From a virus, in the IMG/VR virus record IMGVR_UViG_3300023117_002343, positions 1-64,000 of that record: a stretch of DNA of 64,000 nucleotides; one strand, given 5' to 3'. Of this stretch, positions 48,647 through 63,812 are shown piece by piece; position 1 is the first letter of the stretch, and every line of letters begins with the position of its first letter. The position numbers were made by a program, and so were the translations under genes. The notes under the pieces were generated by a model. It was not told the origin of the DNA. It saw only the letters and a program-made list of their open reading frames with translations, and made no database searches.

Positions 48647-49482
48647 GGCCAAAACAACTTTTCTACGCTTTCTGATGGTCCCAAAGTAAACCCAGCAGCT
48701 TTTTTATGTCCACCGCCGCCAAAGCGCGCAGCAATTTTTGATACATCGACTTCGTTCTTTTGGGTTCTTAGGCTGACTTTATGCTTCATATTTTTGTGAT
48801 CGTAGTACCAAATAACAACGAAATCACAAGTAGGAGCCAATTGAGATCCAATTTCGCTTTGTAAGATTGAGCTATTTACCACGCAAACTTCATAGCTTCT
48901 CCATAAATTTTTTCGAGCACTTTGGCATATTTTCTTCATAACAATATTATTATAATGAAGAATAGTATAACCATCGCTCACAAGCTCCTCGAACTGCGAG
49001 AGATTATTCATGGCATCAAACGACTCAAAAGTAAAGTCGATCAATGAGGTTAGCGCGGCAGACACAGCTTTACTGTCTTCCAGCTCAAAACGCCATAGGT
49101 CTCTGTCCTCAATATAACGCAAAAAAATCGGAGGATCTTCAGAGCCATGAAAGAATTGCCAGGACAATATTGCGCCACTTCTACTCATGTCTAATTGAGC
49201 TTCAGGGATGCCGGCTAAATTTTCTTGGGCAGTTTTATGATGATCTAACACAATCAAAGAATTAGCTTTTTCTATCATTTTCTTAATATCATAACGCGAA
49301 TAAGAAAAATCCAGAATGGCTACATTTTTACCTGTAACATTTGGTATCGGATCGCCATAGGATGCCGGCAAATACTGAGCTCGATCGCCCAGAAGCTTCC
49401 AAGCGGCCCAAGCTGCACCGAATCCATCAGGACAATTTGCGTGATAAATAACTAGGTCGACGTCTTGCGGATTGGGTCTCAT
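48637..49482 (-). CDS. DHH/DHHA1 phosphoesterase
   Basis: YHANCPDG, LDFS, LDHHKT, EDRDLW and GGGGHKKAAGF. Confidence 0.9.
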   Translation of the reverse strand: MRPNPQDVDLVIYHANCPDGFGAAWAAWKLLGDRAQYLPASYGDPIPNVTGKNVAILDFSYSRYDIKKMIEKANSLIVLDHHKTAQENLAGIPEAQLDMSRSGAILSWQFFHGSEDPPIFLRYIEDRDLWRFELEDSKAVSAALTSLIDFTFESFDAMNNLSQFEELVSDGYTILHYNNIVMKKICQSARKNLWRSYEVCVVNSSILQSEIGSQLAPTCDFVVIWYYDHKNMKHKVSLRTQKNEVDVSKIAARFGGGGHKKAAGFTLGPSESVEKLFWPWE

Positions 49483-49483
49483 G

Positions 49484-50029
49484 CTACCTCAAAAATGTTG
49501 TGTGCTGGTGGCATCTGGGCTCATATTTTTCTGAGCCTCCTACGTCAATGTAATTCAGACCTTCAACGCGAGCCACAGTGTAATAAGCATCATGATAACA
49601 CATGGTGCAAACTGCCGGACACACTTTGATCTCGGTGGCCCATGGCAGCATGGCTTGCACTTCCGGAAATACTTCGCCGCGAGCGGAAAGTTGAATGGTG
49701 GAGACGTATATGGACTTGCCCATCTTAAAAAGCGAAATGAGGGCCTCAGCCGAATCATCGATCATAAATGCTTCGTCGACTGCCACTACATCGCATTCCT
49801 GTGCTGCCTCAAAAATCTCGCGACCATTGGAAACCCCGATGGCCTCTGTAGCGTCTCCAGAATGGGTCACGATTGATTCGTCTGCATATCTATGGTCTAA
49901 CTTAGGTTTGAATGTCAGAACGTTTCTGGACTGGTATCCGGATCGATCTATAACGTTCAGCAGCTGACGAGACTTTCCTCCAAACATTGGTCCCGTGTAA
50001 ATTACGAATTCTGGATTACTTTTCATCAC
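49484..50029 (-). CDS. tdk: Thymidine kinase
   Basis: GPMFGGKS, FKPKLDHRY, VDEAF and VGGSEKYEPRC. Confidence 0.92.
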   Translation of the reverse strand: MMKSNPEFVIYTGPMFGGKSRQLLNVIDRSGYQSRNVLTFKPKLDHRYADESIVTHSGDATEAIGVSNGREIFEAAQECDVVAVDEAFMIDDSAEALISLFKMGKSIYVSTIQLSARGEVFPEVQAMLPWATEIKVCPAVCTMCYHDAYYTVARVEGLNYIDVGGSEKYEPRCHQHTTFLR

Positions 50030-51056
50030 TTTCCTTTTGTGATTTTTTAGGCGTCAGTTCCCACCAGGCCAAAGTGGATTCCAGGCCAGTTTCAAAATCA
50101 GTCTGTGGCTTCCAGCTGGTCTCTTCTGTGATGGCCTCAATACTTGCCTTGGTGTGCTTGACATCGCCAGGTCTTTCAGGCGCATGTGTAATTTCAATGT
50201 CACCAAATCGATCTTTGAGCATTTGAAGGATCTGATTGTTAGACAGACTCTTGCCGTAGCCCACATTGTAGGCCGCAAAGTCGCCTGTGTCTTCTGATGC
50301 CACTGTCACCAGAGCGTTAACCACATCGCCTACGTAAACCATGTCTCTTGTCTGCTCACCGTCGCCATCAGAGCGCAGAGGTTGATTCTGTTTGAGCTTA
50401 TCGCACCAGGCTGCTACGGCTGTAGCGTAGGGATTATTGCCATAACAGCCCGGACCGTACACGTTAAAAAATCTCAGTGCTGCACTTTTGAGTCCGTAGA
50501 GATCAGCAAACTGTTTTAAAAACATTTCAGAGCACAGTTTTTGTAGGCCATATGGGCTTCTGGGCTCTTTGTGAAAACTTTCTTCTGTGGCTATTTCGTC
50601 TGGATGTGACGTAAAAGAGCCGTAAATTGCAGAAGAAGAAGCAAAGACGAACTTTTCAACTCCACTTTTTACAGCCATCTCTGCTAGGGCCACCGTCTTA
50701 AAGAGGTTGGTGTCGGTGGAGACAGTGGGATTTTCGACTGAGTACTCAACGCGTGGATTGGCTGCAAGATGAAAGACGTGTGTATATCCTCCCTGCATGA
50801 TGTGCTTAATAACGTCGGGATCTGACATGTCAGCTGTGATGACCAGAGTCTGATCGCTGCCCAGATTTTCGCGCGCAAAAAGTATGTCGACCAATCCTGG
50901 TAAGACCGTTCGAGGCACCACGTCTTTTTCTATCAGGTTCTGAAGATAGCCTGAGCTCAAGTCATCAATAACTGTAACCTTCCAGCCTTCTTCCAATAGT
51001 TTTTTCACTAGGTGTGATCCAATAAAACCGCAACCCCCTGTCACTAGTGCTTTCAT
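50016..51056 (-). CDS. NAD-dependent nucleotide-sugar epimerase/dehydratase
   Basis: TGGCGFIG, FHLAA, SPYGLQK, RFFNVYGP and GDGEQTRD. Confidence 0.92.
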   Translation of the reverse strand: MKALVTGGCGFIGSHLVKKLLEEGWKVTVIDDLSSGYLQNLIEKDVVPRTVLPGLVDILFARENLGSDQTLVITADMSDPDVIKHIMQGGYTHVFHLAANPRVEYSVENPTVSTDTNLFKTVALAEMAVKSGVEKFVFASSSAIYGSFTSHPDEIATEESFHKEPRSPYGLQKLCSEMFLKQFADLYGLKSAALRFFNVYGPGCYGNNPYATAVAAWCDKLKQNQPLRSDGDGEQTRDMVYVGDVVNALVTVASEDTGDFAAYNVGYGKSLSNNQILQMLKDRFGDIEITHAPERPGDVKHTKASIEAITEETSWKPQTDFETGLESTLAWWELTPKKSQKESDEK

Positions 51057-54000
51057 TAAGCAATTCTCCTTAGTTTTGTCACTGAGGTAGAGAAACCCCA
51101 GTTTGAATCATTTGATGCATGTGCCATCCAAAGTGAAAATCTTTCAGGCGGAACATTGTTTTCAAACTTACCCCATACACGTAACCAAGTCGCATTATGT
51201 TCATTGTCAATTGCCCGAATCCGATAAAACGTTTTTCCATTTTTCGTTTTCTTTTGGATTACATCTTGCACACAAAACCAACCAATACCTGCGGTTCCTG
51301 ATTGTATTTTATGCAAGGAACTCACATTTTTCTCACCAAGTCTGTTCATTAGCTTGCTTGAGAAAAGTAGTTCCGGATCAACTGATGACGTTAGATCAAA
51401 TTGTAAATTTATTTTTTGAGTTCGAGTCCAATCTTCCAAATTGGCATATTTTTGTAATAACACATCTACAATTGGTTCAGGTTCTATTTCTTCTTTTGCC
51501 AATTTCTTAAGCTGTGTAGTGGTCTTTCCATATCGACCTTTTTTCAAAAGAACATAGTTGTTTTCATCAGTAAATGTATACAACAGCTGATTATAGTTGA
51601 TGTCACTTTGTTCAAAATCTTTAAGTGATGAAAGGGCTTCAATTTTGCACAGGGCTGATAGACATGTCTTGTTAATTTTAGACAATCTCCACTTGCCGTC
51701 TTCATTATAAAGAAAATCATCAATGCTGGCAAATGGGCGTAAATTCAAGATTTCATCTACGGCAGTCGCACCAATGCCTTTGACAGATGCAAGTGAAGGC
51801 ACAAAAGCATCAATATCATCTGAAAATGCCCACTCTTTTTCGGAGTAATTAACATCAATTTGAGCAAATTCATAGCCCATTTTACGAATTTCGTTAATGA
51901 CTTTTGTGAGTTTTTCCTGACTTCCACTCTCAGCCTGCAACACAGTGGACAACCAGTGTTTAGGATAATACGTTGACAACCAGGCACCGTAATAAGATAC
52001 GATTGCATAAGAAACAGCATGGCTCAAGTTAAAACCGTAAAGCGAGAAAAAAGCAATCTTGTCAAAAAGCTCTTGCGCTTTTCTTCTTTCCAGCCCGCTA
52101 ACACTGACACAGCCCTCAACGAACTTCTTTTCCAGCTCTTCCTTTTCTTTAGCTTTCTTTCCTAGTGATGTCAGGTCTTTCTTCACAAGAGTTTTTCGCA
52201 TCTTGTCCGAATCACCAGGTGAAAATCCTGCCAATTGCTGAGCCAAAAGCATGAATTGTTCCTGGAATGCGATAAAGCCGTATGTGGATCCCAGTACATT
52301 CTTGATTGCAGGATGATCGTATTTAATATTTTCTGCATCACGCTTAGCTTTTACGTACAACTTGTGAACGTTAGCCTTGAGTGGCCCGGGCCGATAGATG
52401 GCTGTAATTGCCGCGAGGTCAGTAATGTTATCAGGTTGTGCCTCCAAGCAGAACTTTCGAGCACCAGGTGATGTAAACTGAAAAATGCCAGGCCAGTTAC
52501 CGCCTTTGAAAACGTGATCAAAAACTTTTGAATCGCTTGGCTCAACATAACGACAATTTAGTTTTTCATCATAGAACTTTTTGATTTCTTCAAACTGCGG
52601 TTCTTTGGAATTTTGACTCTTAAGAATGCGACGAATACAATCTTCGACCATCTTCATTTGAGACAGTCCTAAAAAGTCAAACTTTAGAAAACCATTCTCT
52701 TCAAGGTTTCGGATGTTGACGCCCTCGGTCCAAGGTGTCTGTAGTTCACCACGAACCTTAATGAGCGGCATATGCTTTTCAAGCTCAGGACAGATAAGCA
52801 CACCACCCGCATGTCGACCAATCGATCGATTCATCATGAAAAGCTTTTTAACCTTATCCTCAACCTGAGGATATTTTTCCATGAAGTTTTGATAGCGTTC
52901 TGAATACTTCATGCAATCTTCATGCTTCAGGACAAACATTGATTTTTCCATGTTTGGATCCTGTGCCCGGATTGAAACCTCGGCCTCCAGCGGACCCGTC
53001 ACCGCATTTACCTCACTAAAGGGAATTTGATATAACTTGCTAATGTCCTTTACCAGGGATTTGAGCTTTAAGGTGTTGAAGTTGGAAACCGGAACCACAG
53101 CATCCTCACCAAAAATTTCCCTAGCGGCATTGATTAGCTCATCACGATCACCAACATCAGTATCGATGTCGGGCCACGATGCCTTTTGCTTATTGAGAAA
53201 TCTCTCAAACAGAAGGCCGTACTTAACGGGATCAACGTGTGTAATGCCTAGCAGATAGTTGACAAGGCTACCGGCGCCGGAACCTCGACCGGCACCTGGA
53301 AGAGTTCGATTTTCGGCAAGCTTAAAAACCTTCTGAAGGGTCAAGAAGTAATCCGAAAAATTCAAGTACTTAATATCGCCAAGCTCCATCTTGGCTCGTT
53401 CAACATACTCAGGTTTTTCATGCAGTCCTTCGGCAACCAAACCGTCCTTGACCAATTGCGACAACTGTTGAAACGCGGTTTTCTTTTCATTGGTAAATCT
53501 TGGAAGTTTTGCAGTCGTATCAAACCAAACTTCATTACAAAGCTGCCAAGCAATATCATGACCGGTTTCGATTGACCGCCTGACAAGGTCTTCGGTTCCT
53601 TCGTACCAAGAAAATTCCTGCCGACGAAGAAGATACTCATCCCACATTTGTACTGCATTTTTTGGATACAGCTTTGCCTTTAGTTCATGTTCTAGCGGAA
53701 CTTTTGGACCAGTGCCATCATCCTTAATGCGACCAGGCATTAATAGACGATAAACCTCACGTGCCTCCCATAGATCTGGCCCTGGAAAGTGTGAATCTGC
53801 TGTGGCCACCATTGGAATGCCTGTTTTCTTTGAGGTCTCAATGATGACTCGGTTAGTAAGATCCTGCGCGTTCATTGCATGAAACTGTGTTTCTAAAAAA
53901 AAGTTCTCACGTCCCACAGCATCAATAAACATGTCACAGGCGTTTTCAATCTTACCAACGCACTTTGACATGATTGCAGGATCATCAACCAACGATGGGT

Positions 54001-54616
54001 GTAGTTGGTCAAATTTGAGACCAACAAATTCATCGTAAATGAGACCTGATGGGTATCCCCCCACGCATGCCGTTGATACAGCTAAGCCTTCGCCGTGTTG
54101 CTTAAGCATCTCAAAATCAATACGAGGAAAACGGAAAAAACCCTCAGCAAAGGAGCGTTTTACCAATGTAAAAAGATTTGCTAGGCCTACTTCATTTTTT
54201 GCAATAACGACAAGGTGATACCTTCTATTGACATTGCTAACGGCAGCCTTGGTTCGTGTTTCATCTGCGTCTTCCAAAACCAACCCAGCGTCTTTATCAC
54301 TTACACCTTTTTTGCTTTTGGCATCTTTTGACTCGGTGTATGCTATGCGCCAGTCCTTTAGTGAAGGCACAAAGTAAAATTCAACGCCATAAATCTGTCG
54401 AAACTTTCTACCCTTTCCGGATAGCTTTTTCATGTGTGCATGAGCATGTGCCAAACCGTTACCGTTACCATGATCAGTCAGAGTCCAGCCATCCAGCTGA
54501 TTCTTCAAGCAAAATTCAATATGCTCATGTGGTTGACCTAGGCCATCATAAGGAGAAAAAGTTGAATGACCATGAATAGAAACGAAACGATCAGGTGGAC
54601 GTAAAATATGACTCAT
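51056..54616 (-). CDS. dnaE: DNA polymerase III alpha subunit (family C)
   Basis: PHP domain (HGHS, TDHG, GVE, DSH), GRGSGAGSL, PDIDTD, HAGGV, KFDFLGL and YGFNLSHA. Start set to ATG at 54616. Confidence 0.96.
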   Translation of the reverse strand: MSHILRPPDRFVSIHGHSTFSPYDGLGQPHEHIEFCLKNQLDGWTLTDHGNGNGLAHAHAHMKKLSGKGRKFRQIYGVEFYFVPSLKDWRIAYTESKDAKSKKGVSDKDAGLVLEDADETRTKAAVSNVNRRYHLVVIAKNEVGLANLFTLVKRSFAEGFFRFPRIDFEMLKQHGEGLAVSTACVGGYPSGLIYDEFVGLKFDQLHPSLVDDPAIMSKCVGKIENACDMFIDAVGRENFFLETQFHAMNAQDLTNRVIIETSKKTGIPMVATADSHFPGPDLWEAREVYRLLMPGRIKDDGTGPKVPLEHELKAKLYPKNAVQMWDEYLLRRQEFSWYEGTEDLVRRSIETGHDIAWQLCNEVWFDTTAKLPRFTNEKKTAFQQLSQLVKDGLVAEGLHEKPEYVERAKMELGDIKYLNFSDYFLTLQKVFKLAENRTLPGAGRGSGAGSLVNYLLGITHVDPVKYGLLFERFLNKQKASWPDIDTDVGDRDELINAAREIFGEDAVVPVSNFNTLKLKSLVKDISKLYQIPFSEVNAVTGPLEAEVSIRAQDPNMEKSMFVLKHEDCMKYSERYQNFMEKYPQVEDKVKKLFMMNRSIGRHAGGVLICPELEKHMPLIKVRGELQTPWTEGVNIRNLEENGFLKFDFLGLSQMKMVEDCIRRILKSQNSKEPQFEEIKKFYDEKLNCRYVEPSDSKVFDHVFKGGNWPGIFQFTSPGARKFCLEAQPDNITDLAAITAIYRPGPLKANVHKLYVKAKRDAENIKYDHPAIKNVLGSTYGFIAFQEQFMLLAQQLAGFSPGDSDKMRKTLVKKDLTSLGKKAKEKEELEKKFVEGCVSVSGLERRKAQELFDKIAFFSLYGFNLSHAVSYAIVSYYGAWLSTYYPKHWLSTVLQAESGSQEKLTKVINEIRKMGYEFAQIDVNYSEKEWAFSDDIDAFVPSLASVKGIGATAVDEILNLRPFASIDDFLYNEDGKWRLSKINKTCLSALCKIEALSSLKDFEQSDINYNQLLYTFTDENNYVLLKKGRYGKTTTQLKKLAKEEIEPEPIVDVLLQKYANLEDWTRTQKINLQFDLTSSVDPELLFSSKLMNRLGEKNVSSLHKIQSGTAGIGWFCVQDVIQKKTKNGKTFYRIRAIDNEHNATWLRVWGKFENNVPPERFSLWMAHASNDSNWGFSTSVTKLRRIA

Positions 54617-54635
54617 GATATAATCCTTAAAAAAG

Positions 54636-54698
54636 TGTGCCTCCACAATTATATCATCATGGAGGCACATTTACACGTTTTTAATGGATGAAAACGTG
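54636..54698 (-). promoter_or_regulatory. GTGTAA-N17-TATAAT promoter embedded in two inverted repeats upstream of dnaE
   Basis: Arms TGTGCCTCCA (54636-45) and TGGAGGCACA (54660-69) enclose the -10 box. Arms CACGTTTT (54674-81) and AAAACGTG (54691-98) overlap the -35 box. Confidence 0.65.
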
Positions 54699-54706
54699 AT
54701 GATTTT

Positions 54707-55165
54707 TTACTCGATGCTGTCAGAGTAAGGCTCTAGGAGCATCTCACCGGCTTCATGACAACGATCCAAGTAATCTTCCAACTGCTCAAAAGTCGTGCAA
54801 ACCTTGACACCGCTTCTTGCCAGCATCAAATTGAATGGTGCTCCCTTTGGGAGACCCGCGCAAAAGTAAATAATGGCCTTATCAAATGCCGTGGCATAAC
54901 CGCATTCCATGATAGTGCCAAGATCTTTATCACGGGTATTGACAACCAAAAAGTCAGCTTCTCGAATGTGCTTTAGGTTTCCTTGGTAGGTCGCATCCTG
55001 CACATCTTTTGGCGCATTTGGTGGACATACAAAAATTCTACGTGGGGAAGCCAGCTCAACCCAAGAATCACGCTCATCCAAGATCTGCTCAAGGCGATCA
55101 AGTTCGGCGGCCTGCGTGGGGTTAAACCAGCCGGCTGCCAAATAACACTTCTTTCTATCACTCAT
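54707..55165 (-). CDS. Nucleoside 2-deoxyribosyltransferase / MilB-Rcl family N-glycosidase
   Basis: YLAAGWFNP.Q, I.EADF.V, DLGTIMECGYA and FNLML. Start at ATG 55165. Confidence 0.88.
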   Translation of the reverse strand: MSDRKKCYLAAGWFNPTQAAELDRLEQILDERDSWVELASPRRIFVCPPNAPKDVQDATYQGNLKHIREADFLVVNTRDKDLGTIMECGYATAFDKAIIYFCAGLPKGAPFNLMLARSGVKVCTTFEQLEDYLDRCHEAGEMLLEPYSDSIE

Positions 55166-55166
55166 A

Positions 55167-55688
55167 TTATTTCTCCAAAAATTGCTTAATATCGGAAAGC
55201 TCTCTTTCCAGATTTTCGTCATCAACATTCATAACCAAAACATCACACTTTGACCACTCGGCAAACTCGAGATAGCGTTCATGAATTTTTTCAATATTAT
55301 CATTAATCGCCTCATATTCATCACTCGAGTTTTCGTAATTTGATCGTACCGGTATTATTATTTTTGTCCCTAATCGTGCATGGCGTGAATCCAGTTCTCG
55401 TAAAACTTCAAAATCCACTTTTCGACCAAGCACAGAACCGTAAATCCACTCGGACGGCCATGCACGATCTAGAATAACTGAGGCACCTGATTGCTCTAAA
55501 AATGAAGTAAAATAGGTGTCGACATATCTGACAGCATGCAAAAAATAAGAAGGATCCTGTAAAAAGTATCGATGCTCATCACAATTTTTGAAATACGGAA
55601 TTTCAAGCTCATTTGCAAGTGCCTGAGACATTTGTGTTTTTCCACAACCATCAGGTCCATCAAAAATAATCACATGCTGTTTTGTCAT
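55167..55688 (-). CDS. Deoxynucleoside monophosphate kinase (thymidylate-kinase-like)
   Basis: IIFDGPDGCGKT P-loop and ILDRAWPSEWIYG. Confidence 0.85.
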   Translation of the reverse strand: MTKQHVIIFDGPDGCGKTQMSQALANELEIPYFKNCDEHRYFLQDPSYFLHAVRYVDTYFTSFLEQSGASVILDRAWPSEWIYGSVLGRKVDFEVLRELDSRHARLGTKIIIPVRSNYENSSDEYEAINDNIEKIHERYLEFAEWSKCDVLVMNVDDENLERELSDIKQFLEK

Positions 55689-56612
55689 TTACTTGAAGCC
55701 AACTTTTCGGAGTCGACCCTCATATCCAATAGTACGCCAATCCTTAATCATTTCCTTTTCACCTGAAAACAAAAGATTTTCAGGAAGTTCTTGTAACTCC
55801 AGATACCATGCCGACTTATCAAACTTCCAATCAGCAGGATTCTCATCATTAACCGATGACGGAATATGAGCACCAGCACTAGGAGCACGACCTGTATTAC
55901 CGAACACCTTGTCAACGTTCAGGCATACATTGTCATTTCCCATAGCGTCCAACTTCGTCATCAGGTGTGACCATCCGGACCCCTTAATCTTGTCGGTACC
56001 ATCCTCATTGAGATGAGCTCGACGAAGCTCACGATGAATCAGGCGACCAATATAGTTCAGCTCATCAGTCAGGCCATTCTCACAACGACGAGCAAAATAT
56101 CCTCGCAAGGCCATGAAATTTACAACACAAACCAAGTTTGTGTGCTGGCCATGTAGTGTCAGATAACGACAGTCTTGGGGAGGAACACCAGCATCGACCA
56201 TATCATCATACAATGACTGGGACATTTCCGCCAATTGATTAGCGCGGTCACCAAACTCAGATTGATAAATGTTCTTAGGAACTGTTACAGCATGCTCAAT
56301 TCTTTCAGGCATTTGTGAAGTTACCACATAAGCCCAACCAACACGACCTCGAGTAAACTGCGCCAAACCGACACGACTAATTCCCTCAATTCTAACTTGA
56401 AACTGAAGTGCTTCCTGCGGAATTGGAAGAGCACGCGCGGCAATTACATCCATTGCCGCCTGAATATGCTCAGGATTATCAGGATCATACTCGTCATTGC
56501 GAAGAGAATACCATGTCTCACGAAACCATTCCCAAAACATTTTGAATGGCATGGGGTTGCCCTGCTCAAGCAGAGTTACATTAATGTGTTGAAAACCGTT
56601 AAAAGTGCTCAT
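55689..56612 (-). CDS. ThyX-fold flavoprotein with non-canonical active-site motif
   Basis: E...F...IEGISR...AQFTRGRVGWAYVVTSQ, Y.DMVDAGVPPQDCRYL and N...L..Y..RR. Confidence 0.8.
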   Translation of the reverse strand: MSTFNGFQHINVTLLEQGNPMPFKMFWEWFRETWYSLRNDEYDPDNPEHIQAAMDVIAARALPIPQEALQFQVRIEGISRVGLAQFTRGRVGWAYVVTSQMPERIEHAVTVPKNIYQSEFGDRANQLAEMSQSLYDDMVDAGVPPQDCRYLTLHGQHTNLVCVVNFMALRGYFARRCENGLTDELNYIGRLIHRELRRAHLNEDGTDKIKGSGWSHLMTKLDAMGNDNVCLNVDKVFGNTGRAPSAGAHIPSSVNDENPADWKFDKSAWYLELQELPENLLFSGEKEMIKDWRTIGYEGRLRKVGFK

Positions 56613-56654
56613 TTCTACTCCTTTGTGTGAGCCTCAGAATACCCTTGAATAATA

Positions 56655-56810
56655 TTACTGGGTGCGAAGATGTTCAATAAGTTTATCTGTCGCATTACGC
56701 AATCCACTACGATTAAATTCTGTGTCACCGATTTGCAACCAGATATCCTCAAGAAATGAATCCATTTCAACTCGATACTGTTGCATGTCTTCGTAGGAAA
56801 TTTTTGTCAA
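56655..56810 (-). CDS. Small hypothetical protein
   Basis: Non-overlapping part of ORF 56655..56951; possible TTG start at ~56810. Confidence 0.35.
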   Translation of the reverse strand: MTKISYEDMQQYRVEMDSFLEDIWLQIGDTEFNRSGLRNATDKLIEHLRTQ

Positions 56811-56826
56811 TTCTGCGGTTGGATTA

Positions 56827-57774
56827 TCAAGCAGTCTTAGTACTTGTCTCGATATTTTTGACGAGTGTTGTAATGTTGCCTGTCTCCCAGTCAAACATTT
56901 GAATACCTTCATAGCCCTTGACTCCTTGATTATATGAACGTGAGGGAACAAGACATGTTACACCATGCATCGCGTATTCTGCTGCATGTTTAGGTGAATC
57001 ATCAATAGCACAAACAACTTTACCTTGTTTGTATGCATCGAGTGAGGCCACGGCAATATACTTTTCTGAGCTCAGTTGAACCGAATCAAACTCACCCACA
57101 TAGGTTTCGAGCCATTCATAGGTTTCATTCATACACTTGAGCTCAGACGCAGGACGTGCCGTTAAAATGTGAATCCAGTAACCTTCATCTCGAAGGCGAC
57201 CTAGATTACTAACAACGTTTTGACATGTGTCAAGTTTTCTAACTTCTCCCGAATCGATAAACTCCTGCAATAGTTCATCGCCGGCTTTACCAGCAATCGG
57301 TTTGCTCAGAAAATACTCGGAAGAAGTATGATCGACATTTTCATCATAAGTTCGATTGACCCATTCATAAAAATTTTGCCTGAATCTCGCTAGAACATCA
57401 TCGACATCAACTACCACTACGGGTTGCCCTTGCCATTTTGACCAATTCTTCTTAGACCGAACATTTAGATGAGAGTCTCTAGACGCAAACGCCTGCAAGG
57501 CATCGTTCTCATCGTAACCCCATAGATTAAGAATCGCTAGACAATATCGATAAACGTCCATTGTTTCAAACAGAATATTCTGCCTGTGTGTAGGGGTAAA
57601 AGTCTGGCGATGACCCCTGTAGTCAACAGCATCAGCTAGTTTCGCCACTTCTCCATGCATTGCCAAACACAGTGTCTTGTGCTTTTCTATTTTTTCCAAC
57701 TCTGACATCTCAGCCGCATCATAGAAAATTCTGGCAAACTGTGCCTGTTTTTCCAAAAGTTCTTTCAATGTCAT
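56827..57774 (-). CDS. All-alpha NTP-pyrophosphatase-like domain fused to HAD 5'(3')-deoxyribonucleotidase (NT5C-like)
   Basis: N-terminal GEVAKL...ETMDVYRY; C-terminal VDVDDVL, ILTARP, T..WL and IDDSP. Confidence 0.82.
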   Translation of the reverse strand: MTLKELLEKQAQFARIFYDAAEMSELEKIEKHKTLCLAMHGEVAKLADAVDYRGHRQTFTPTHRQNILFETMDVYRYCLAILNLWGYDENDALQAFASRDSHLNVRSKKNWSKWQGQPVVVVDVDDVLARFRQNFYEWVNRTYDENVDHTSSEYFLSKPIAGKAGDELLQEFIDSGEVRKLDTCQNVVSNLGRLRDEGYWIHILTARPASELKCMNETYEWLETYVGEFDSVQLSSEKYIAVASLDAYKQGKVVCAIDDSPKHAAEYAMHGVTCLVPSRSYNQGVKGYEGIQMFDWETGNITTLVKNIETSTKTA

Positions 57775-57779
57775 ATCTT

Positions 57780-58004
57780 TTACTTTGGGTTGTTTACAAG
57801 ATAGCTGATGTGATCGAGAATTTCCTCGACCTGATCATCGCCACATTCCTTGTAGGATTGCCCCATTTTCTCCTTGACACTACGCCAAATATGCGCATAG
57901 GGATTTCTTGAGGAATGTTCTGGGTGAGGAGGTAAATTTCCATCCAGGGCTTTACCCCCTAGGGCAACGGCTTCACGAATTTTCTGCATATTTTCAGGCG
58001 ACAC
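57780..58004 (-). CDS. Hypothetical protein
   Basis: LPPHP.H..RNPYAHIW..VK.KMG.SYK; in-operon. Confidence 0.6.
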   Translation of the reverse strand: MSPENMQKIREAVALGGKALDGNLPPHPEHSSRNPYAHIWRSVKEKMGQSYKECGDDQVEEILDHISYLVNNPK

Positions 58005-58369
58005 TAATAGCCTCCATTGATCCTGCCTAAGTTGACTTGACCCTTTTTCATGTAGGCTTCAAATATTTCTTCGACAGAAATACCTGAATAGATCAAAATC
58101 CCTACAAGGTAATGAAGTACATCGCTCAATTCTTCCATATAAGAATCACGATCAAAGTCTTTAAACTCTGTGGTTCGATGCTTTTTGGAATTCTTAAGCA
58201 GCATATTTGACTCAAAAAGCTCATGCATACATTCATGAGAAAGGTGCTTTAAAAACTGTTGGTTTTCCTTCTCAGCAAGATCTAAGGGGAAATCTGGATG
58301 ATCCCTTTTATCTCGTAAGAGCTCCAAGAAATCTTGTTGCTGTTTATACATTTGCTCAAATTTGTCCAC
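58004..58369 (-). CDS. Dimeric dUTPase/dCTPase-like all-alpha NTP pyrophosphatase
   Basis: HELFE, KNSKKHR, EELSDVLHY and Y..K...N..R...GY. Confidence 0.82.
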   Translation of the reverse strand: MDKFEQMYKQQQDFLELLRDKRDHPDFPLDLAEKENQQFLKHLSHECMHELFESNMLLKNSKKHRTTEFKDFDRDSYMEELSDVLHYLVGILIYSGISVEEIFEAYMKKGQVNLGRINGGY

Positions 58370-58371
58370 AA

Positions 58372-58572
58372 CTACTCTCCTGGTGCTACTTCATCTTGCA
58401 TTTTTACAAGGTTTTTTTCAAAGTTCTCGACGTAATCCGGATCCAAATCAAGAACGCCATCGTTCTCAACAAATTGAACCATGCGAATATTATCAGAAAT
58501 ATCGGTACCCGTCAAAATCGCAAGTTGCAAAAGCTTTACCAGTTGTGCAATACTATTATCAGAAAGTCTCAT
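58372..58572 (-). CDS. Hypothetical protein
   Basis: GGAGG SD; LLQLAILTGTDISD. Confidence 0.65.
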   Translation of the reverse strand: MRLSDNSIAQLVKLLQLAILTGTDISDNIRMVQFVENDGVLDLDPDYVENFEKNLVKMQDEVAPGE

Positions 58573-58619
58573 ATTTTCCTCCAGGTTTGATTCAATTTTA
58601 TTAGTTTTATTGATTTTGT

Positions 58620-59417
58620 TCAGCGCTGAATTTGTGGAACCCAGTGCGTGGAACGGCCGTCTCCAGCATCCTCTTTAACCACTTCGTGGCCGTGAGGATC
58701 TGTCTTTCTTCCGTAAACCTGGAAGAAGTCTACCGCTTTGGCGTCTCCCTCAGGTGCACGATAATTCCTAATTGAAGCGCCTTGTCTTTCGTAACTTTCT
58801 TTAAGAACATTTTCTATGGCCTCCTTGAGGTTTTTCATGTCTTCTGTCGACAGAGATCCGACCAATCGGTACGGCGACAGTCGAGCTCGATATAGAGCTT
58901 CAGCTTTCACATAATTGCCAACACCGCATATAACACTCTGATCCATGATCGCTTTGGTCACGGTCCAGTGTTGCTTGACATCGAGTGCAGCATTAAACCT
59001 TTCACTCGACACATCTTCGCTCAGCATGTCTGGACCCAAACTGTTGAGCTTATCAAAAAATGCTTTTTTGGTCCGAATAACTTTCAGCGTGCCAAAATTT
59101 CTGATGTCAGAGAAGAATACTGGCGGGCCTGAGTCAAAATTAAACTTGACGCGATTGTGCTTGTTGCTCGAGTCAAGAGTCCAATGTCCAGTCATTCCCA
59201 GGGTATTCAACAGAAACTGGTCATTTTCCAGGATCCAAAATATGAGCTTGCCCTTGACGCCCACTCCAACAACTTTGGTCGGCTCAAACATTTCTATGCC
59301 TGTAATAGGCTTTTTGCAATATCTGCCAGAAATGGGCTGAATAGACAGGCATCTTCTAATACCAACCATTTGAGCCAATGACTCCCCAATCAGTTTTACT
59401 TCTGCTCCCTCTGGCAA
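58620..59417 (-). CDS. Fpg/Nei DNA glycosylase, zincless-finger type
   Basis: N-terminal PEG.EV, KGKL, LGMTG, D.RNFG, LGPD, GVGNYVKAEALY and VYG...R.THW.P; no Cys zinc finger. Confidence 0.92.
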   Translation of the reverse strand: MPEGAEVKLIGESLAQMVGIRRCLSIQPISGRYCKKPITGIEMFEPTKVVGVGVKGKLIFWILENDQFLLNTLGMTGHWTLDSSNKHNRVKFNFDSGPPVFFSDIRNFGTLKVIRTKKAFFDKLNSLGPDMLSEDVSSERFNAALDVKQHWTVTKAIMDQSVICGVGNYVKAEALYRARLSPYRLVGSLSTEDMKNLKEAIENVLKESYERQGASIRNYRAPEGDAKAVDFFQVYGRKTDPHGHEVVKEDAGDGRSTHWVPQIQR

Positions 59418-59419
59418 TT

Positions 59420-60007
59420 TTATTCCTCCCTGTTTACGCTTTTTTCAGTTTCAAATCCATTGGGGTATCTCTTGCGTAATTTTTCTACATTTACATGCAT
59501 TGCAATGGCCATTCCGCCTTCACGCCCAGACTGAATAGGACCGTGAATCTTTTTCAGAATATGCACGATATCTTTGATGACATTAGAAATACCATGACAA
59601 ATTAGAGCTGGATTAAGTTTATGTCCGTGACCTACAACTTTTTTGACATGCTCGGTTACTTCCTTGGCATTTCGGATGATCCTGAATTTTTTTCTGAAGG
59701 ATGCTGCGCAAGAATTGTTGTAATTGTCAATGTTGCCATAACTTTGCCACATGTGAAAAGGCACATCAAGCACATCCATGATTCGCGCAGCATACCATAG
59801 AACGTCACCAGCCTCTTTTGTCACTAAATCTATAGTATCAGCCAGGCTAATTTCGTTACGAGGATCGTAAATCTGGTCTACACAATCAATAAATTCCGCA
59901 CACTCGCCTATGAGGCCCAGAGCCAAAATGGCTAGATCGTCAGTAGCCGATGTTTCTCGGGTGATTTTTTGATATTCGTCGTAGGTGTATCTTTTAATGC
60001 CTGACAT
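59420..60007 (-). CDS. MazG-like nucleotide pyrophosphohydrolase (tandem domain)
   Basis: LGLIGECAE, KEAGDVLWY, KKVVGHGH and NVEKLRKRYPNGF. Confidence 0.85.
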   Translation of the reverse strand: MSGIKRYTYDEYQKITRETSATDDLAILALGLIGECAEFIDCVDQIYDPRNEISLADTIDLVTKEAGDVLWYAARIMDVLDVPFHMWQSYGNIDNYNNSCAASFRKKFRIIRNAKEVTEHVKKVVGHGHKLNPALICHGISNVIKDIVHILKKIHGPIQSGREGGMAIAMHVNVEKLRKRYPNGFETEKSVNREE

Positions 60008-61357
60008 CTAAGCAACCTCCTTTTTGAGTAGTGTTTTAAGATCAGTTTCGTACATTTTTTCAGGTGTGGTCTTTTTTGTAGCTTCGAGCTCTGCCACTTT
60101 CGCTTTTTTGATCTTTCTGAGTTCTTCAGCTTTTTCTTTGGTGAGAGAGTGAATGGCCATATTGAGCAAATAGTTGTAACTGCCAGATTCTCGATCGAAG
60201 TTCATCGCCTTGAGATCCCCTTCGATGGCTTTTTTGGGTCGATTGTTGATGACCAACCGGCCGGCAAGAATCTCTTCAATGAATTGGGCTTTATTGTCTG
60301 CAACTCTTAGCTCCTTTTCCAGTCTTTTGATGTTGTTCTTTTTACGTAGATTATAGTATTTCAGCCTGAAATTAACAAAATATTCTACGATTTCTTCTGG
60401 CTTCTCAAATATCTTAAGCTTGCCGTGCTCGTCAAGCGTTGTGTAGTTCTCTCCGATTCGCTCTTTGATCTTAAGCAGCGCCGGAAGGCGGTTTCTCTTG
60501 ACCATCTTGGCCAGATCTGCACGCTTAAATTTCAGAATGTAGTGTGGTGTCTCAGACGAGTGATCGTCGTAAGAGACTAAATCGCCCTTTTCAATTAGTT
60601 TTTCCAGGAGCGCTTCGTATTTTTCGTAGGTGAATCCCGGCGGAATTTCGGTGACTTCAACTGTCGAAGTATTTTTGACGCGAAAATTGCCGCTCATGAT
60701 CCAGGATTTTGGATTATCGGTAGCTCTCTCAAACTGGCCTGTGAAGCCATTGATCCAAGGCTTGATTTCCGGGCACTCTTTTCCTTTAAGAACCGATAGA
60801 CACGCCTTGATGAGATCGACAGGGTGACGATTGAGAATATTGGTGGCAAAGCCCACTGCGATACCGCTTCCACCGTTTAACAAGACTGTCGGAATAATAG
60901 GCAGAAAAAACCTAGGCTCGATCTTTTCGCCTTCTTCTTCCTGAGACTCACACAAGTCAAAGTCTTGATAGAGCTGTCGAAAGTTTTCGTTAAATTTGAC
61001 GCCAACATAGCGAGGAGCTCCAGCTTCCGGAGATCGCAGCGAGCCAAACTGGCCAATGCCTTGAAATATAGGCATGGAGTTTTTGAAATTCTGAGTCATG
61101 CCGATGATAGTGGCATCCAGAGAGCCATGATGAAACATGGTCATGCTGGCAGCCAGGCCGCCAAGCTGAAAGACCTTCATAGGCTTTTCTTTGCCAGTCT
61201 TCCAAACTTGATTGGCCGTGTGAGCAATTTTTCGCTGTGAAGGCTTAAAGCCGTCGATCAAGCTCGGTATGGCTCGGTTTTCCACTGTGTACAGCGCATA
61301 GTCTCTTAGCTCCCTATCAAAAAAGTCTGAGACTGTTCTTTCGGCAACTTTATCCAT
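60008..61357 (-). CDS. Type IIA topoisomerase subunit A (T4 gp52/GyrA-like)
   Basis: RAIPSLIDGFKPSQRK, G.FGS, APRY catalytic Tyr, GIAVGFATNI and TEIP; no GyrA CTD. Confidence 0.94.
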   Translation of the reverse strand: MDKVAERTVSDFFDRELRDYALYTVENRAIPSLIDGFKPSQRKIAHTANQVWKTGKEKPMKVFQLGGLAASMTMFHHGSLDATIIGMTQNFKNSMPIFQGIGQFGSLRSPEAGAPRYVGVKFNENFRQLYQDFDLCESQEEEGEKIEPRFFLPIIPTVLLNGGSGIAVGFATNILNRHPVDLIKACLSVLKGKECPEIKPWINGFTGQFERATDNPKSWIMSGNFRVKNTSTVEVTEIPPGFTYEKYEALLEKLIEKGDLVSYDDHSSETPHYILKFKRADLAKMVKRNRLPALLKIKERIGENYTTLDEHGKLKIFEKPEEIVEYFVNFRLKYYNLRKKNNIKRLEKELRVADNKAQFIEEILAGRLVINNRPKKAIEGDLKAMNFDRESGSYNYLLNMAIHSLTKEKAEELRKIKKAKVAELEATKKTTPEKMYETDLKTLLKKEVA

Positions 61358-63206
61358 TGGAAACTCCGTCTAGCATCTTCTTCTTTCTTACGTCCGAATC
61401 ACTTCCAAACCAGTCTTCAAGCGACTGATTCAGATCTTGTCCTGGCACCAATGCAAACATCTTCGGGCTCTTAATAATATCTTTATACTCCGGATCTTCC
61501 AGAGCAGCCAGCCCCTTTTTGTAGGAGACGTTCCAGCCGGAAGACTTGTTGTTTTTGGCCCAGGCCTCAAATTCCTCATTGGTATAAAACATCAGCTTCT
61601 GATCTTTCTTGTCGGCGACAACAAGCGGCGTCATGACCCTCAGCAACTTCTTTTGCTCGAGCAGTTCCGGCCAATAACGACCAAAGAAATTGACAAGCAG
61701 TCCCGCAATGTTGTCTCCGTCCGGATCGGCATCGGAATATATCAATATCTTGCCATAACGCAAATTTTTAGGCTCCTCGCCCAAACGCAATCCAATGGCA
61801 TTCAACAGAGCCTGGACCTCTTTGTTCTGAATGACTTTGGAGGCAGGCAGTCCCGCCACGTTCAGAAACTTGCCGCGAAGCGGAAAGGCACCTTGTGTCA
61901 TTGGATCGCGATACTTTCTAAAGGCACTAGAGGCTGAGTCTCCCTCGAAAAGAGACAGAGTGCACTTTTCTCTCTTGCGCCCCTTAGCATCGATGAGCTT
62001 CAGGACCTTTTGCTTTGACAGTTTCTTGTTAAGCTGGCGAAGGGCCTTTCTCTCGTCGGCCTTCTTTTTCTGCTGCGCCCAGTCCAATATGCGCTGAATA
62101 ACCTCAGAGGCACACACGGCTTTCAGAAACTTGTCAGACAGTTCGTGCTTGGAACCAAAATCTCGAGGGTCTGTAATGAGTTTCTCTTTGGTCTGCGAAG
62201 AAAAACTGGAATTGATGATGTCGGCAGAGACAAACACAAACAGGTGATTTTTAATCTCTGATGGCCTCAGATCGACCTTGTGCTTCTTTTTTAGCCGCGC
62301 GCGAATGGCATTGACAATCTGTGTTGCGATAAAATCGACGTGAGTGCCTCCGTCCGACGTAAAAACGCCATTGACAAAAGAGACGTGCTGCAGACCTCCG
62401 TCTGATGCTCCCACAGCAATTTTCCAGCGCTCCGAGGCCTCAAACTGAATATCGTCGACGTACATGCGACAATAGGAGGCGAATGAGGGATAGCTGTAAC
62501 GCTTGCCATTGAAGTAAACTTTGAGAGTGGGATTGCAGGCTGCCACGTCAATACAGCGCTTTTTCATCAGAGTGACGTGATGATCATCCAGTCCCGACAT
62601 GCCAAACTGTTTAAAGTCGGGCAGATATGTTATCTGTGTGAAGCCGGCACCCCTCTTCTTTGAGACTTTGGGCTCTTCGCGCTCTCTCATGTTGCTGCGA
62701 AATTTTTGCGAGAAGAACTTTTTTCCGTCGCAGGTCTCAATGTGAAACTCTGAGGAAAATATATTGGTCAGGGTGGCACCGACGCCATTGGTTCCCGCTA
62801 GCAATCGATCTTCTGTGTCATCAAAATTTGATCCGGCTTTGAGATTGGAGAAGATCATCTCCGGTATCCACTCTTGATGTTCTGAGTGCTTTGCAACTGG
62901 AATGCCACCATTGTCTTTCACAGCAATCTTGCCCGTCTTTTGATCGACTGCCACATCGATTCGATTAAGCTTGGGATTGCGGCGATGCTCATCAGCGGCA
63001 TTAGAAACAATCTCGTCAAAAATCTTGAGAAAGCCCGGATTTTGCTGAACCGACTGCATCTCGAAACGGCCTTCTTCATTGAGCGCATAGCACTGATCGA
63101 CTCGAGTTTTAGTGGAGCCAATGTACATTCCGGGCCTGGCGATACAGTGACTTATATCATCTAGCTTTTTATACTGTTCTTCAATGGTTTTCTTAGTTTT
63201 TGCCAT
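61350..63206 (-). CDS. Type IIA topoisomerase subunit B (T4 gp39+60/GyrB-like)
   Basis: RPGMYIGS, FDEIVSNA.D, DNGGIP, GTNGVG, EGDSA, PLRGK, DADPDG and YKKGL. Confidence 0.95.
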   Translation of the reverse strand: MAKTKKTIEEQYKKLDDISHCIARPGMYIGSTKTRVDQCYALNEEGRFEMQSVQQNPGFLKIFDEIVSNAADEHRRNPKLNRIDVAVDQKTGKIAVKDNGGIPVAKHSEHQEWIPEMIFSNLKAGSNFDDTEDRLLAGTNGVGATLTNIFSSEFHIETCDGKKFFSQKFRSNMREREEPKVSKKRGAGFTQITYLPDFKQFGMSGLDDHHVTLMKKRCIDVAACNPTLKVYFNGKRYSYPSFASYCRMYVDDIQFEASERWKIAVGASDGGLQHVSFVNGVFTSDGGTHVDFIATQIVNAIRARLKKKHKVDLRPSEIKNHLFVFVSADIINSSFSSQTKEKLITDPRDFGSKHELSDKFLKAVCASEVIQRILDWAQQKKKADERKALRQLNKKLSKQKVLKLIDAKGRKREKCTLSLFEGDSASSAFRKYRDPMTQGAFPLRGKFLNVAGLPASKVIQNKEVQALLNAIGLRLGEEPKNLRYGKILIYSDADPDGDNIAGLLVNFFGRYWPELLEQKKLLRVMTPLVVADKKDQKLMFYTNEEFEAWAKNNKSSGWNVSYKKGLAALEDPEYKDIIKSPKMFALVPGQDLNQSLEDWFGSDSDVRKKKMLDGVSNG

Positions 63207-63248
63207 TATTTTTTCGCCAACTAGACCATGCATGTATATCGGTTATAT

Positions 63249-63812
63249 TTATGCTGCTTCTTTTTTCACATCTAACTGATCTACCCAATCATAAAAATTG
63301 GGATCAGTGGCCAGCCAAGACAGTTGGGATTGATCTACTCGCGCATAGGCCATATATTTTGAATTCAAGATAGAATCGGTCAGATTCGCTCTGTGCAGAT
63401 TCGCTCTGTACAGATTCGCATCGGTCAGATCCGCATTGGTCAGATTCGCATTGGTCAGATACGCAGCGGTCAGATTCGCACCGGACAGATTCGCATCGGT
63501 CAGATTCGCTTCGGTCAGATCCGCACCCCACAGATCCGCATTGGTCAGATTCGCTTCGGCCAGTTTCGCTTCTGTCAGATTCGCATCGGTCAGTTTCGCT
63601 TCGGTCAGATTCGCACCGGACAGATTCGCATCGGTCAGATTCGCAGCGGTCAGATTCGCACCGGACAGATTCGCATCGGTCAGATTCGCTTCGGTCAGAT
63701 CCGCACCCCACAGATCCGCATTGGTCAGATCTGCCTTTTTTCCTTTGTTGCCATTAGACTCTAGCCACAATTTGTGCTGCTTCAGAATGTGATTGAGTTC
63801 AGACTGTTTCAT
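63249..63812 (-). CDS. Pentapeptide repeat protein
   Basis: IL..HKLWL N-cap followed by >20 A(N/D/K)Lxx repeats. Confidence 0.93.
   Translation of the reverse strand: MKQSELNHILKQHKLWLESNGNKGKKADLTNADLWGADLTEANLTDANLSGANLTAANLTDANLSGANLTEAKLTDANLTEAKLAEANLTNADLWGADLTEANLTDANLSGANLTAAYLTNANLTNADLTDANLYRANLHRANLTDSILNSKYMAYARVDQSQLSWLATDPNFYDWVDQLDVKKEAA
63462..63730. repeat. Perfect 89-bp direct repeat (63462-63550 = 63642-63730) within a 15-bp-period array
   Basis: Direct comparison of the sequence. Confidence 0.85.

Follow-up and report, generated by a model that had tools for sequence, protein, structure and literature searches.

A divergent ThyX-fold protein and its conserved partner genes form a candidate nucleotide-pool editing module in uncultured marine phages

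The window analysed here is the first 64 kb (64,000 nucleotides) of a 75.7-kb viral contig, IMG/VR record IMGVR_UViG_3300023117_002343, and the subject is a cluster of nucleotide-metabolism genes around a divergent paralogue of the flavin-dependent thymidylate synthase ThyX, here named ThyXp. Based on the CheckV estimate, the contig represents about 20% of the full genome, and the source is thus a jumbo phage. The contig is present in salt-marsh metagenomes, with copies at 95–99% identity in seawater and marine sediment. The cluster belongs to a co-directional block of replication and nucleotide genes on the minus strand (48215–63233; Table 1). Five of its genes had been pointed out in an earlier note, namely those for a dUTPase/dCTPase-like pyrophosphatase, a pyrophosphatase/nucleotidase fusion, ThyXp, a small kinase for deoxynucleoside monophosphates (dNMPs) and a nucleoside deoxyribosyltransferase-family (NDT) protein, and all five were found there on the minus strand upstream of dnaE, which directly follows the module. 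They had been described as a tightly coupled run, and the start of the kinase gene does abut the stop of ThyXp; the coupling is interrupted, however, by a gap of 214 nt between the fusion gene and ThyXp, in which there is a weak promoter-like site. An open reading frame (ORF) of 43 aa inside this gap (56655–56786) is not conserved.

The match of ThyXp (307 aa) to the Pfam family Thy1 is partial, covering profile positions 35–188 only, and passes the cut-off (61.8 bits against 24.8). Its score for the NCBIfam thyX equivalog TIGR02170 is 35 bits and fails the cut-off of 87.9. A phmmer search of PDB sequences with the single ThyXp sequence found no ThyX, and the family profile reaches ThyX at E = 0.004. 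Modelling against ThyX structures, as the earlier note had proposed, gave a ThyX fold: the AlphaFold2 model computed from the family alignment (pLDDT 92.4) superposes on Thermotoga maritima ThyX (1O26/4KAT) with Z = 14.6 and a root-mean-square deviation of 2.7 Å over 202 of 220 residues (VIA). PolB (Z = 13.8) and the enzymes of Mycobacterium tuberculosis, Helicobacter pylori and PBCV-1 come close below, and the top Foldseek matches are all ThyX or PolB. From the model we are confident that ThyXp has the ThyX fold and is a real enzyme-like paralogue, and by family criteria it is predicted not to be a second thymidylate synthase.

The same window contains a canonical thyX, which had been placed at 775–1509; the gene is present with an intact motif, but its extent is 775–1533, from a TTG start. 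Its product carries HRHRTWSYNEISRRY, in which RHRx7SxR(Y) is complete, and matches Thermus thermophilus ThyX (6j61) at E = 2.4e-44. The core fold is thus common to ThyXp and to canonical ThyX/FDTS (PF02511, TIGR02170; T. maritima 1O26, M. tuberculosis 3GWC), whereas ThyXp differs in an altered motif, an added insertion and a score below the cut-off, and the canonical copy coexists with it in the same genomes. The paralogue is accordingly distinct from the canonical gene, as had been claimed, and both copies are kept in the jumbo relatives. Adjoining the canonical thyX and a NUDIX gene is a gene for a GlnII-type ligase (1499–2536), a homologue of which, with 50% identity, lies directly between NDT and ThyXp in two related loci (L010, 8920–9936; L012, 8931–9920). 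The ligase could act in the same pathway by attaching an amine or amino acid; alternatively, its gene could be a metabolic one with no connection to the module.

The residues of ThyXp were mapped by HMM/family-profile alignment onto T. maritima ThyX (1KQ4), whose numbering is used below. Residues 88–101 of ThyXp are RGRVGWAYVVTSQM at the place where canonical ThyX has RHRx7SxR, which bears out the description of a rewired motif. The motif with its following Tyr is not found (RGRVGWAYVVTSQMP); RHRx7SxRY of canonical ThyX corresponds to RGRx8SQMP, with H79 changed to Gly, R90 to Met and Y91 to Pro. Also replaced are H53 (by Leu), E86 (by Val), R165, N169 and H178, and equivalents of P56, E58, Q75, R78, R80, S88, R147, N163 and R174 are kept. 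In canonical ThyX, R78, R80, S88 and R90 hydrogen-bond dUMP (PMC3498832). Activity depends critically on Y91 and S88, and a role in helping the methylene transfer is proposed for Y91, which R90 polarises (PMC11940539); the equivalents of Y91 in the M. tuberculosis and H. pylori enzymes form a lid over the reacting C5 and N5 (PMC6514825). Five of the six dUMP-bonding residues R78, R80, S88, R90, R147 and R174 are kept in ThyXp (as R88, R90, S99, R149 and R176), the one lost being R90 of T. maritima.

The replaced positions are invariant within the close ThyXp family, and an alignment of 33 ThyXp sequences with 45–79% identity has about 60 invariant positions. An insertion of 60–100 aa, at about residues 200–265, is conserved and carries new motifs that are invariant in the close family (W214, DxVFGNTGR, FxKSAW and LLFxxExxM). 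Distant members, down to 25% identity, retain SR(V/I)xLAQxTR, the Ser, R149, R176 and the C-terminal motifs; the R80 equivalent varies among them too, and RHR is present in none. A homodimer model of ThyXp, with FAD included, scored 0.77 against 0.50 for the best control, a mark that 20 of 30 proteins with a solved pair structure reach, against one of 23 with a single-chain structure; of the three runs, one gave 0.05, with 0% agreement between runs, and the score may only reflect likeness, because ThyX tetramers have already been solved. The modelled partner has a pLDDT of at least 83, and the interface (79–91, 101–102, 141–156, 235–237 and 261–268) consists of conserved motifs and residues of the insertion.

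The ThyXp family contains at least 142 clusters when grouped at 90% identity; at 50% identity, with E < 1e-30, there are 14. The clusters are all metagenomic and lie on contigs of up to 241 kb; 26 loci with full-length members were found in IMG/VR. A megablast search of the region against cultured phages gave no match, and tblastn of ThyXp against them gave solely canonical ThyX, with 24–36% identity over part of the length, so that no cultured member of the family is known. A pattern scan of 185,579 bacterial and archaeal species genomes, which is sensitive to close relatives only, found no relative of ThyXp, and the ESM Atlas yielded generic Thy1 clusters only. On these searches the family appears to be virus-only.

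Co-occurrence of the five genes had been named as a check, and the cluster is conserved. Within the jumbo clade (57–76% identity) the order dUTPase_2-type pyrophosphatase, fusion, ThyXp, kinase, NDT and dnaE is kept, with occasional insertions; the same order including dnaE is found in L001–L009, L015 and L016. In all ten loci with 29–42% identity, a quartet of NDT, an HD YfbR-like phosphohydrolase, ThyXp and a small kinase is present; these loci come from phages of 55–125 kb, including complete 58-kb genomes, and from a complete 332-kb genome. As controls, 46 canonical-thyX loci were fetched by the same scan as the 26 ThyXp loci. NDT occurs in 23 of the 26 ThyXp loci (Fisher 7e-16), a kinase related to thymidylate kinase (TMK-like; either P-loop type) in 25 and a nucleotidase (HAD or HD) in 20, whereas each of the three is found in none of the 46 controls. 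These counts come from related loci that are not phylogenetically independent and are inflated by relatedness, which weighs against reading too much into them; the association nevertheless spans at least three deeply diverged lineages. The gene arrangement is far beyond chance: it is met again in phage lineages that diverged deeply, and the control loci lack it. The dedicated kinase, the nucleotidase and NDT, with the NTP pyrophosphatases in the present phage, thus form a conserved module with ThyXp, as had been supposed.

Some loci deviate from this pattern or extend it. One sub-clade (L013) has ThyXp and the kinase without a nearby NDT, the NDT lying 60 kb away on the same contig; two genes downstream of its kinase is an S-adenosylmethionine decarboxylase (SpeD-like, E = 6e-26; L013 5119–5496). 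In L005 and L009 the NDT frame (G009 97745–98062; open frame of 403 aa) stays open upstream through sequence resembling GIY-YIG/NUMOD-type homing endonucleases, which could mean that the two are fused in frame or that an endonuclease has recently inserted there. In five loci of 55–59 kb phages (L017, L018, L019, L020 (11279–14347) and L023), a choline/ethanolamine-kinase-like gene and an NTP-transferase come after the quartet, and next, in four of the five (not L017), a BCCT transporter; this LicA/LicC/transporter-like set is not core, because it is absent from L021 and L022.

The small kinases beside ThyXp fall into two TMK-like groups, with the P-loops 'FDGPDGCGKT' and 'DGIDKxGKD', and the kinase is presumed to be the dNMP kinase for the ThyXp product. 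The MazG-like/HAD fusion was modelled (pLDDT 88) as a four-helix bundle plus a HAD domain. The N-terminal bundle (residues 1–110) has a weak match to dUTPase_2 and is related pairwise to the 121-aa pyrophosphatase (E = 0.004). The C-terminal domain is of the NT5C type, with invariant DxD, T, K and DD motifs, and the best fold matches of the fusion model are the cytosolic and mitochondrial 5'(3')-deoxyribonucleotidases (cdN/mdN; Foldseek, TMt 0.7–0.8). The fusion is presumed to run from dNTP through dNMP to the deoxynucleoside. Altogether, the cluster has three all-alpha domains of the NTP-pyrophosphatase type and one deoxynucleotidase as candidates for the removal of a competing canonical dNTP. 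The 121-aa pyrophosphatase is kept in 11 related loci, and the 74-aa ORF was detected by tblastn, with 32–49% identity, in L002, L003, L006, L007 and L015. The Fpg/Nei glycosylase is limited to the jumbo clade (L002–L004, L006, L007, L010, L012 and L016) and is probably accessory.

The HAD nucleotidase of the present phage is replaced by an HD YfbR-like enzyme in the distant lineages, which is a non-orthologous displacement. Since the nucleotidase is swapped between unrelated folds, the activity itself seems to be selected, and this is the strongest sign that it belongs to the pathway. Starting from a dNTP, either enzyme, the fusion or the DatZ-like HD protein, would deliver a deoxynucleoside, which would be the substrate of a nucleoside-type NDT.

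The NDT gene had been placed at 54707–55228; a gene is present there, but its real start is the ATG at 55165, one base past the kinase stop and provided with a GGAG ribosome-binding site. It had also been assigned to an NDT/MilB family, and of this the NDT part stood. Compared with the Lactobacillus leichmannii NDT (1F8X), the equivalents of Tyr7, Asp92, Glu98 and Asn123 are kept and Asp72 is replaced by Asn; the catalytic residues are conserved across the ThyXp-linked NDTs. The best PDB sequence matches are the L. leichmannii and Bacillus NDTs (E = 3e-4), and DNPH1 follows at only E = 0.1–0.6. The nucleotide N-hydrolases DNPH1 and MilB have a phosphate-binding Ser at the position where NDT has Asp92. 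Because the 5'-OH-binding Asp is kept, the protein resembles the true nucleoside deoxyribosyltransferases and not MilB/DNPH1, and from its sequence it looks like an enzyme of the nucleoside-transferase type.

Table 1. Features of the ThyXp cluster and of the comparison loci in the window
Feature	Position	Strand	Best family matches and remarks
Topoisomerase II, B and A subunits	60008-63233	-	
MazG-like pyrophosphatase, accessory	59420-60007	-	PF03819 E 1.4e-4; phrog_229 E 1.8e-21
Fpg/Nei-family DNA glycosylase	58620-59417	-	H2TH and Fapy_DNA_glyco; TIGR00577 141 bits, below cut-off
66-aa ORF	58372-58572	-	
121-aa all-alpha NTP pyrophosphatase (dimeric-dUTPase/dCTPase-like superfamily)	58004-58369	-	PF08761 dUTPase_2 E 2.5e-5; phrog_12184 E 1e-14
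74-aa ORF	57780-58004	-	without family match
MazG-like/HAD fusion	56827-57774	-	NT5C E 3.8e-8; dUTPase_2 E 0.0067
214-nt gap	56613-56826		weak promoter-like site
ThyX paralogue (ThyXp), 307 aa, module core	55689-56612	-	Pfam Thy1 E 1e-16, 61.8 bits
TMK-like P-loop kinase	55167-55688	-	phrog_761 thymidylate kinase E 1.7e-12; TIGR00041 E 7e-7, below cut-off
NDT, 152 aa from ATG 55165	54707-55165	-	PF05014 E 1.5e-13
dnaE, DnaE-type replicative polymerase	51056-54670	-	DNA_pol3_alpha, finger, PHP and HHH_6 domains
NAD-dependent sugar-nucleotide epimerase/dehydratase	50016-51056	-	
Thymidine kinase (TK)	49484-50029	-	Pfam TK E 1.7e-32
DHH/DHHA1 phosphoesterase	48637-49482	-	DHHA1 E 3.4e-8
dCMP deaminase	48215-48652	-	dCMP_cyt_deam_1 E 1.4e-23
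Canonical ThyX, comparison copy	775-1533, TTG start	-	Pfam Thy1 E 3.4e-48, full profile
GlnII-type glutamine-synthetase-like ligase	1499-2536	-	NF041605 397 bits, below 500 cut-off

The logic of the cluster parallels the pool editing of T4 and SPO1, as had been noted before. T4 uses the dCMP hydroxymethylase gp42, the dNMP kinase gp1 and the dCTPase gp56, and also has Td, Tk and dCMP deaminase; SPO1 uses a dUMP hydroxymethylase, a hydroxymethyl-dUMP (hmdUMP) kinase and a dTTPase. The module would share their logic: a paralogue of the thymidylate synthase (TS) family that stands beside the TS or takes its place, a dedicated kinase, removal of the canonical dNTP by an all-alpha NTP pyrophosphatase, and a polymerase encoded by the phage itself. 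In the jumbo genomes G000, G001 and G002, the putative TS-family modifier is distinct from the thymidylate synthase, as in those phages, and the association with a dedicated kinase in 25 of 26 loci, against none of 46, gives the putative modifier a linked kinase whose substrate is likewise predicted. Unlike the modifiers of T4 and SPO1, ThyXp has the ThyX fold (flavin type) and not the ThyA fold, and a disposal or recycling branch of nucleotidase and NDT is added.

Two cultured phages have parallel arrangements. One is Bacillus phage SP-15, the DNA of which holds 5-(4',5'-dihydroxypentyl)uracil, and whose authors hypothesised that gp130 is a hydroxymethyl-dUMP synthase (PMC5977210). Like the window phage, SP-15 has a canonical Thy1 protein (gp9, ThyX) besides a divergent one (gp130); the NDT gp127 is encoded two genes away from gp130, and among the other genes of SP-15 are those for an HD YfbR-like 5'-nucleotidase and a NUDIX hydrolase. 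In gp127 (316 aa), two weakly similar stretches match the NDT catalytic segment, with no significant pairwise match. The function of gp130 is likewise a prediction. As a member of the ThyXp family, gp130 (413 aa) was rejected (hhalign probability 1%), and SP-15 is a parallel rather than a case of membership, because gp130 does not belong to the family by sequence. The earlier interpretation of the cluster as a route to a non-canonical pyrimidine is upheld in part, as regards a conserved module around a paralogue, but the idea of a divergent ThyX as hydroxymethyl-dUMP synthase had already been put forward for gp130 (PMC5977210).

The other cultured phage, Geobacillus phage GR1 (OK896991), resembles the module in an NDT with 41% identity to that of the window, a YfbR-like HD protein and a small TMK-like kinase of the 'DG(I/V)D(K/R)xGKD' type, as in ThyXp loci. 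Its ThyX-like protein of 322 aa matches the ThyXp family in the N-terminal region (profile columns 11–186; hhalign 99%) but, unlike ThyXp, keeps RHR. The GR1 cluster adds a nitroreductase and an annotated glycosyltransferase (no Pfam match), and we found no publication on GR1 DNA.

The parallel extends to the Z-genome phages, which deplete dATP with DatZ and NDT-family enzymes (PMC12884076; 10.1101/2025.10.22.683976). In these phages (DatZ HD dATPase, MazZ, DmtZ/NDT-M2), a YfbR-like HD or MazG-type enzyme and an NDT-family enzyme deplete a canonical deoxynucleotide, as is proposed here, and non-homologous enzymes have converged in function, as in the nucleotidase swap described above. The present module differs in having no PurZ and in an NDT that, in contrast to the DNPH1 type acting on nucleotides, has kept the Asp for binding of the 5'-OH; the ThyX fold of the synthetic enzyme makes a pyrimidine the likely target, against the purine of the Z-genome. 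The general scheme is known from T4, SPO1, SP-15 and the Z phages, and the modifier fold and the disposal branch are new; in the literature searched, no paper describes the ThyXp family or a module of ThyX-like protein, NDT, nucleotidase and kinase.

We give even chances to the reading that the module makes a C5-modified dUMP, phosphorylates the product and disposes of the competing canonical nucleotide. The same holds for the broader statement that it is a phage nucleotide-pool editing system whose synthetic enzyme is a neofunctionalised ThyX-fold protein. This pool-editing reading is the most economical one for the module, and the folds, the motif changes, the gene order, the co-occurrence and the analogous replacement of the nucleotidase are the observations that it joins. 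In the proposed path, dCMP deaminase and the pyrophosphatases would supply dUMP. ThyXp would bind dUMP in a ThyX-like composite site at the subunit interface and transfer a one-carbon unit to C5, and the exocyclic-methylene intermediate would be captured by water or another nucleophile rather than reduced. Capture is proposed over reduction because the Arg90–Tyr91 lid dyad and His53 are gone and the conserved insertion would close the site; the lost lid would be the spot where solvent must enter. In canonical ThyX, 5-hydroxymethyl-dUMP is already obtained as the acid-trapped intermediate (PMC3498832), so that the change from reduction to hydration would be chemically small. Instead of dTMP, the enzyme would yield 5-hydroxymethyl-dUMP or a related dUMP with a substituent at C5.

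The adjacent TMK-like kinase would then phosphorylate this product, which the host thymidylate kinase would perhaps refuse, and host NDP kinase and the phage DnaE would put the modified nucleotide into DNA. In the disposal branch, the all-alpha pyrophosphatases and the nucleotidase (the MazG-like/HAD fusion here, the HD YfbR/DatZ-like enzyme in other lineages) would strip the competing canonical pyrimidine dNTP to the deoxynucleoside, which the nucleoside-type NDT would cleave, or from which it would recycle the deoxyribose. Because the jumbo clade keeps canonical ThyX, we propose that thymine replacement would be partial there, as in SP-15. In its most specific form, the proposal is that ThyXp is the first flavin-type C5-hydroxymethylase or alkyl-transferase, that 5-hydroxymethyldeoxyuridine (5-hmdU) or a further substituted uracil replaces T partly or fully in widespread uncultured jumbo and 55–125 kb phages of marine and salt-marsh habitats, and that the nucleotidase–NDT pair is a previously unrecognised disposal route for a canonical pyrimidine nucleotide; this form is tentative, and we rate it somewhat below an even chance.

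Several observations count against pool editing. The canonical ThyX, TK and dCMP deaminase of the window phage give it the look of a plain dTTP-supply system, and a nucleotidase beside TK could amount to a futile cycle if thymidine were the target. The FAD-contacting positions H79, R165, N169 and H178 are changed in ThyXp. In the complete 58-kb phages, ThyXp is the sole TS-like gene and could be nothing other than their thymidylate synthase. Canonical ThyX and ThyXp occur together in the jumbo genomes G000, G001 and G002, whereas the complete 58-kb phage G003 and the 124-kb G004 have ThyXp only, and ThyA was found in none of the five. Lastly, no glycosyltransferase or other gene for post-replicative hypermodification was found within the cluster.

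The main alternative is a route that supplies thymidylate, salvages deoxyribose and rebalances the nucleotide pool while making no modified base at all; we hold it to be unlikely yet a serious competitor. In such a route, dNMPs from the breakdown of host DNA would be dephosphorylated, NDT would move the deoxyribose to uracil or thymine, and TK and the TMK-like kinase would re-phosphorylate the product; ThyXp would be a divergent but genuine dTMP synthase beside or instead of canonical ThyX. The pyrimidine-supply genes TK, DHH phosphoesterase and dCMP deaminase, which prolong the cluster past dnaE and are kept in L003 and L015, strengthen this explanation, as they make up with canonical ThyX and RNR a classic set of dTTP-supply genes. 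The NDT has intact catalytic residues and belongs to the nucleoside-transferase type, ThyXp keeps three of the four residues cited above as hydrogen-bonding dUMP, together with R147 and R174, and the dCMP deaminase that accompanies the lone ThyXp of G003 points to dUMP as its substrate. However, Y91, which is critical in T. maritima ThyX, R90 and H53 are all changed to invariant non-equivalent residues, and the score of ThyXp is far under the thyX equivalog cut-off. Since the jumbo genomes retain an intact canonical ThyX, a second dTMP synthase would be redundant in them. Salvage would also be expected to pair equally with canonical ThyX, whereas none of the 46 canonical-thyX loci has a nearby NDT, nucleotidase or kinase, and in the 58-kb phages no TK was seen that would finish the route.

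A second alternative is that the module serves a free modified base or nucleoside, or a substrate other than DNA such as a ribonucleotide, as in MilA/MilB, the bacimethrin pathway or PolB, with a role in host takeover or toxicity. ThyXp would modify a nucleotide, the nucleotidase and NDT would release the nucleoside or base, and the kinase would act on another intermediate. A TS-family enzyme and an NDT-family glycosidase are a known pairing in nucleoside-antibiotic pathways (MilA/MilB), the fold matches of ThyXp include PolB, which has the ThyX fold and methylates UMP/dUMP, and a nucleotidase followed by NDT would indeed free the base from the ThyXp product. Yet the module lies within a replication operon, directly upstream of dnaE, the TMK-like kinase that is nearly constant beside ThyXp points to triphosphate formation, and the family was met in viral contigs only, the scan for close relatives in species genomes having been negative; we regard this alternative as improbable.

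A role of the pyrophosphatases, nucleotidase and NDT in purine replacement (2-aminoadenine, the Z-genome), with ThyXp unrelated, was rejected as highly implausible: NDT and YfbR-like HD domains do co-occur in dZ-enriched aquatic contigs (10.1101/2025.10.22.683976) and the 318-kb relative G002 has a 338-aa PurA-like gene (contig 301571–302587; L079 7572–8588), but this protein is much closer to bacterial PurA (E = 5e-54) than to PurZ (E = 4e-16) and its gene is near NUDIX, NAMPT and lysozyme genes and not MazZ/DatZ, no PurA/PurZ (PF00709) match was found in G000, G001, complete G003 or G004, and the HAD domain resembles the pyrimidine-preferring cdN/mdN.

As for other features of the contig, the remainder beyond the window encodes a second pentapeptide-repeat protein and ClpP, and then RNR, DnaB, FEN, RecA, a gp32-like protein and a PolA fragment. 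The two pentapeptide-repeat proteins (Qnr/MfpA-like) are encoded in tandem directly upstream of the topoisomerase II genes (window 63249–63812, minus strand; contig 63809–64408, L080 810–1409) and may protect or regulate the topoisomerase. Besides its DnaE-type polymerase, the phage has a family A polymerase (contig 74641–75693; L080 11642–12694), the PolA fragment being cut by the contig end. The sugar-nucleotide epimerase/dehydratase gene lies between dnaE and TK, is kept there in L003, L004, L009 and L015, and may be unconnected with DNA. A protein with an Fe/Mn superoxide-dismutase C-terminal domain (E = 3e-12) is encoded at 45595–46284 on the minus strand. Contigs from two salt-marsh metatranscriptome libraries match NDT, the kinase, ThyXp, the HAD fusion and Fpg at 99% identity or more, which we do not count as proof of expression because DNA carry-over is possible, and one seawater run contained, at high depth, a variant with 90–99% identity over Fpg and MazG.

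To our knowledge, every characterised phage replacement of a pyrimidine at the pool level uses a ThyA-fold enzyme, and for a counterpart with the ThyX fold there has been no more than a conjecture, the one on SP-15 gp130. With its fixed set of partners, the large and apparently virus-only ThyXp family offers a clonable candidate for a new outcome of flavin-mediated methylene transfer, and the module is also a candidate for a possibly new DNA base and for a new route of disposing of a canonical nucleotide. If ThyXp instead turned out to make thymidylate despite lacking the Tyr91/Arg90 dyad, the current mechanism of ThyX would need revising. Base-modification systems shape how phages withstand restriction and CRISPR, can introduce bias into metagenomic sequencing and provide tools for making modified DNA.

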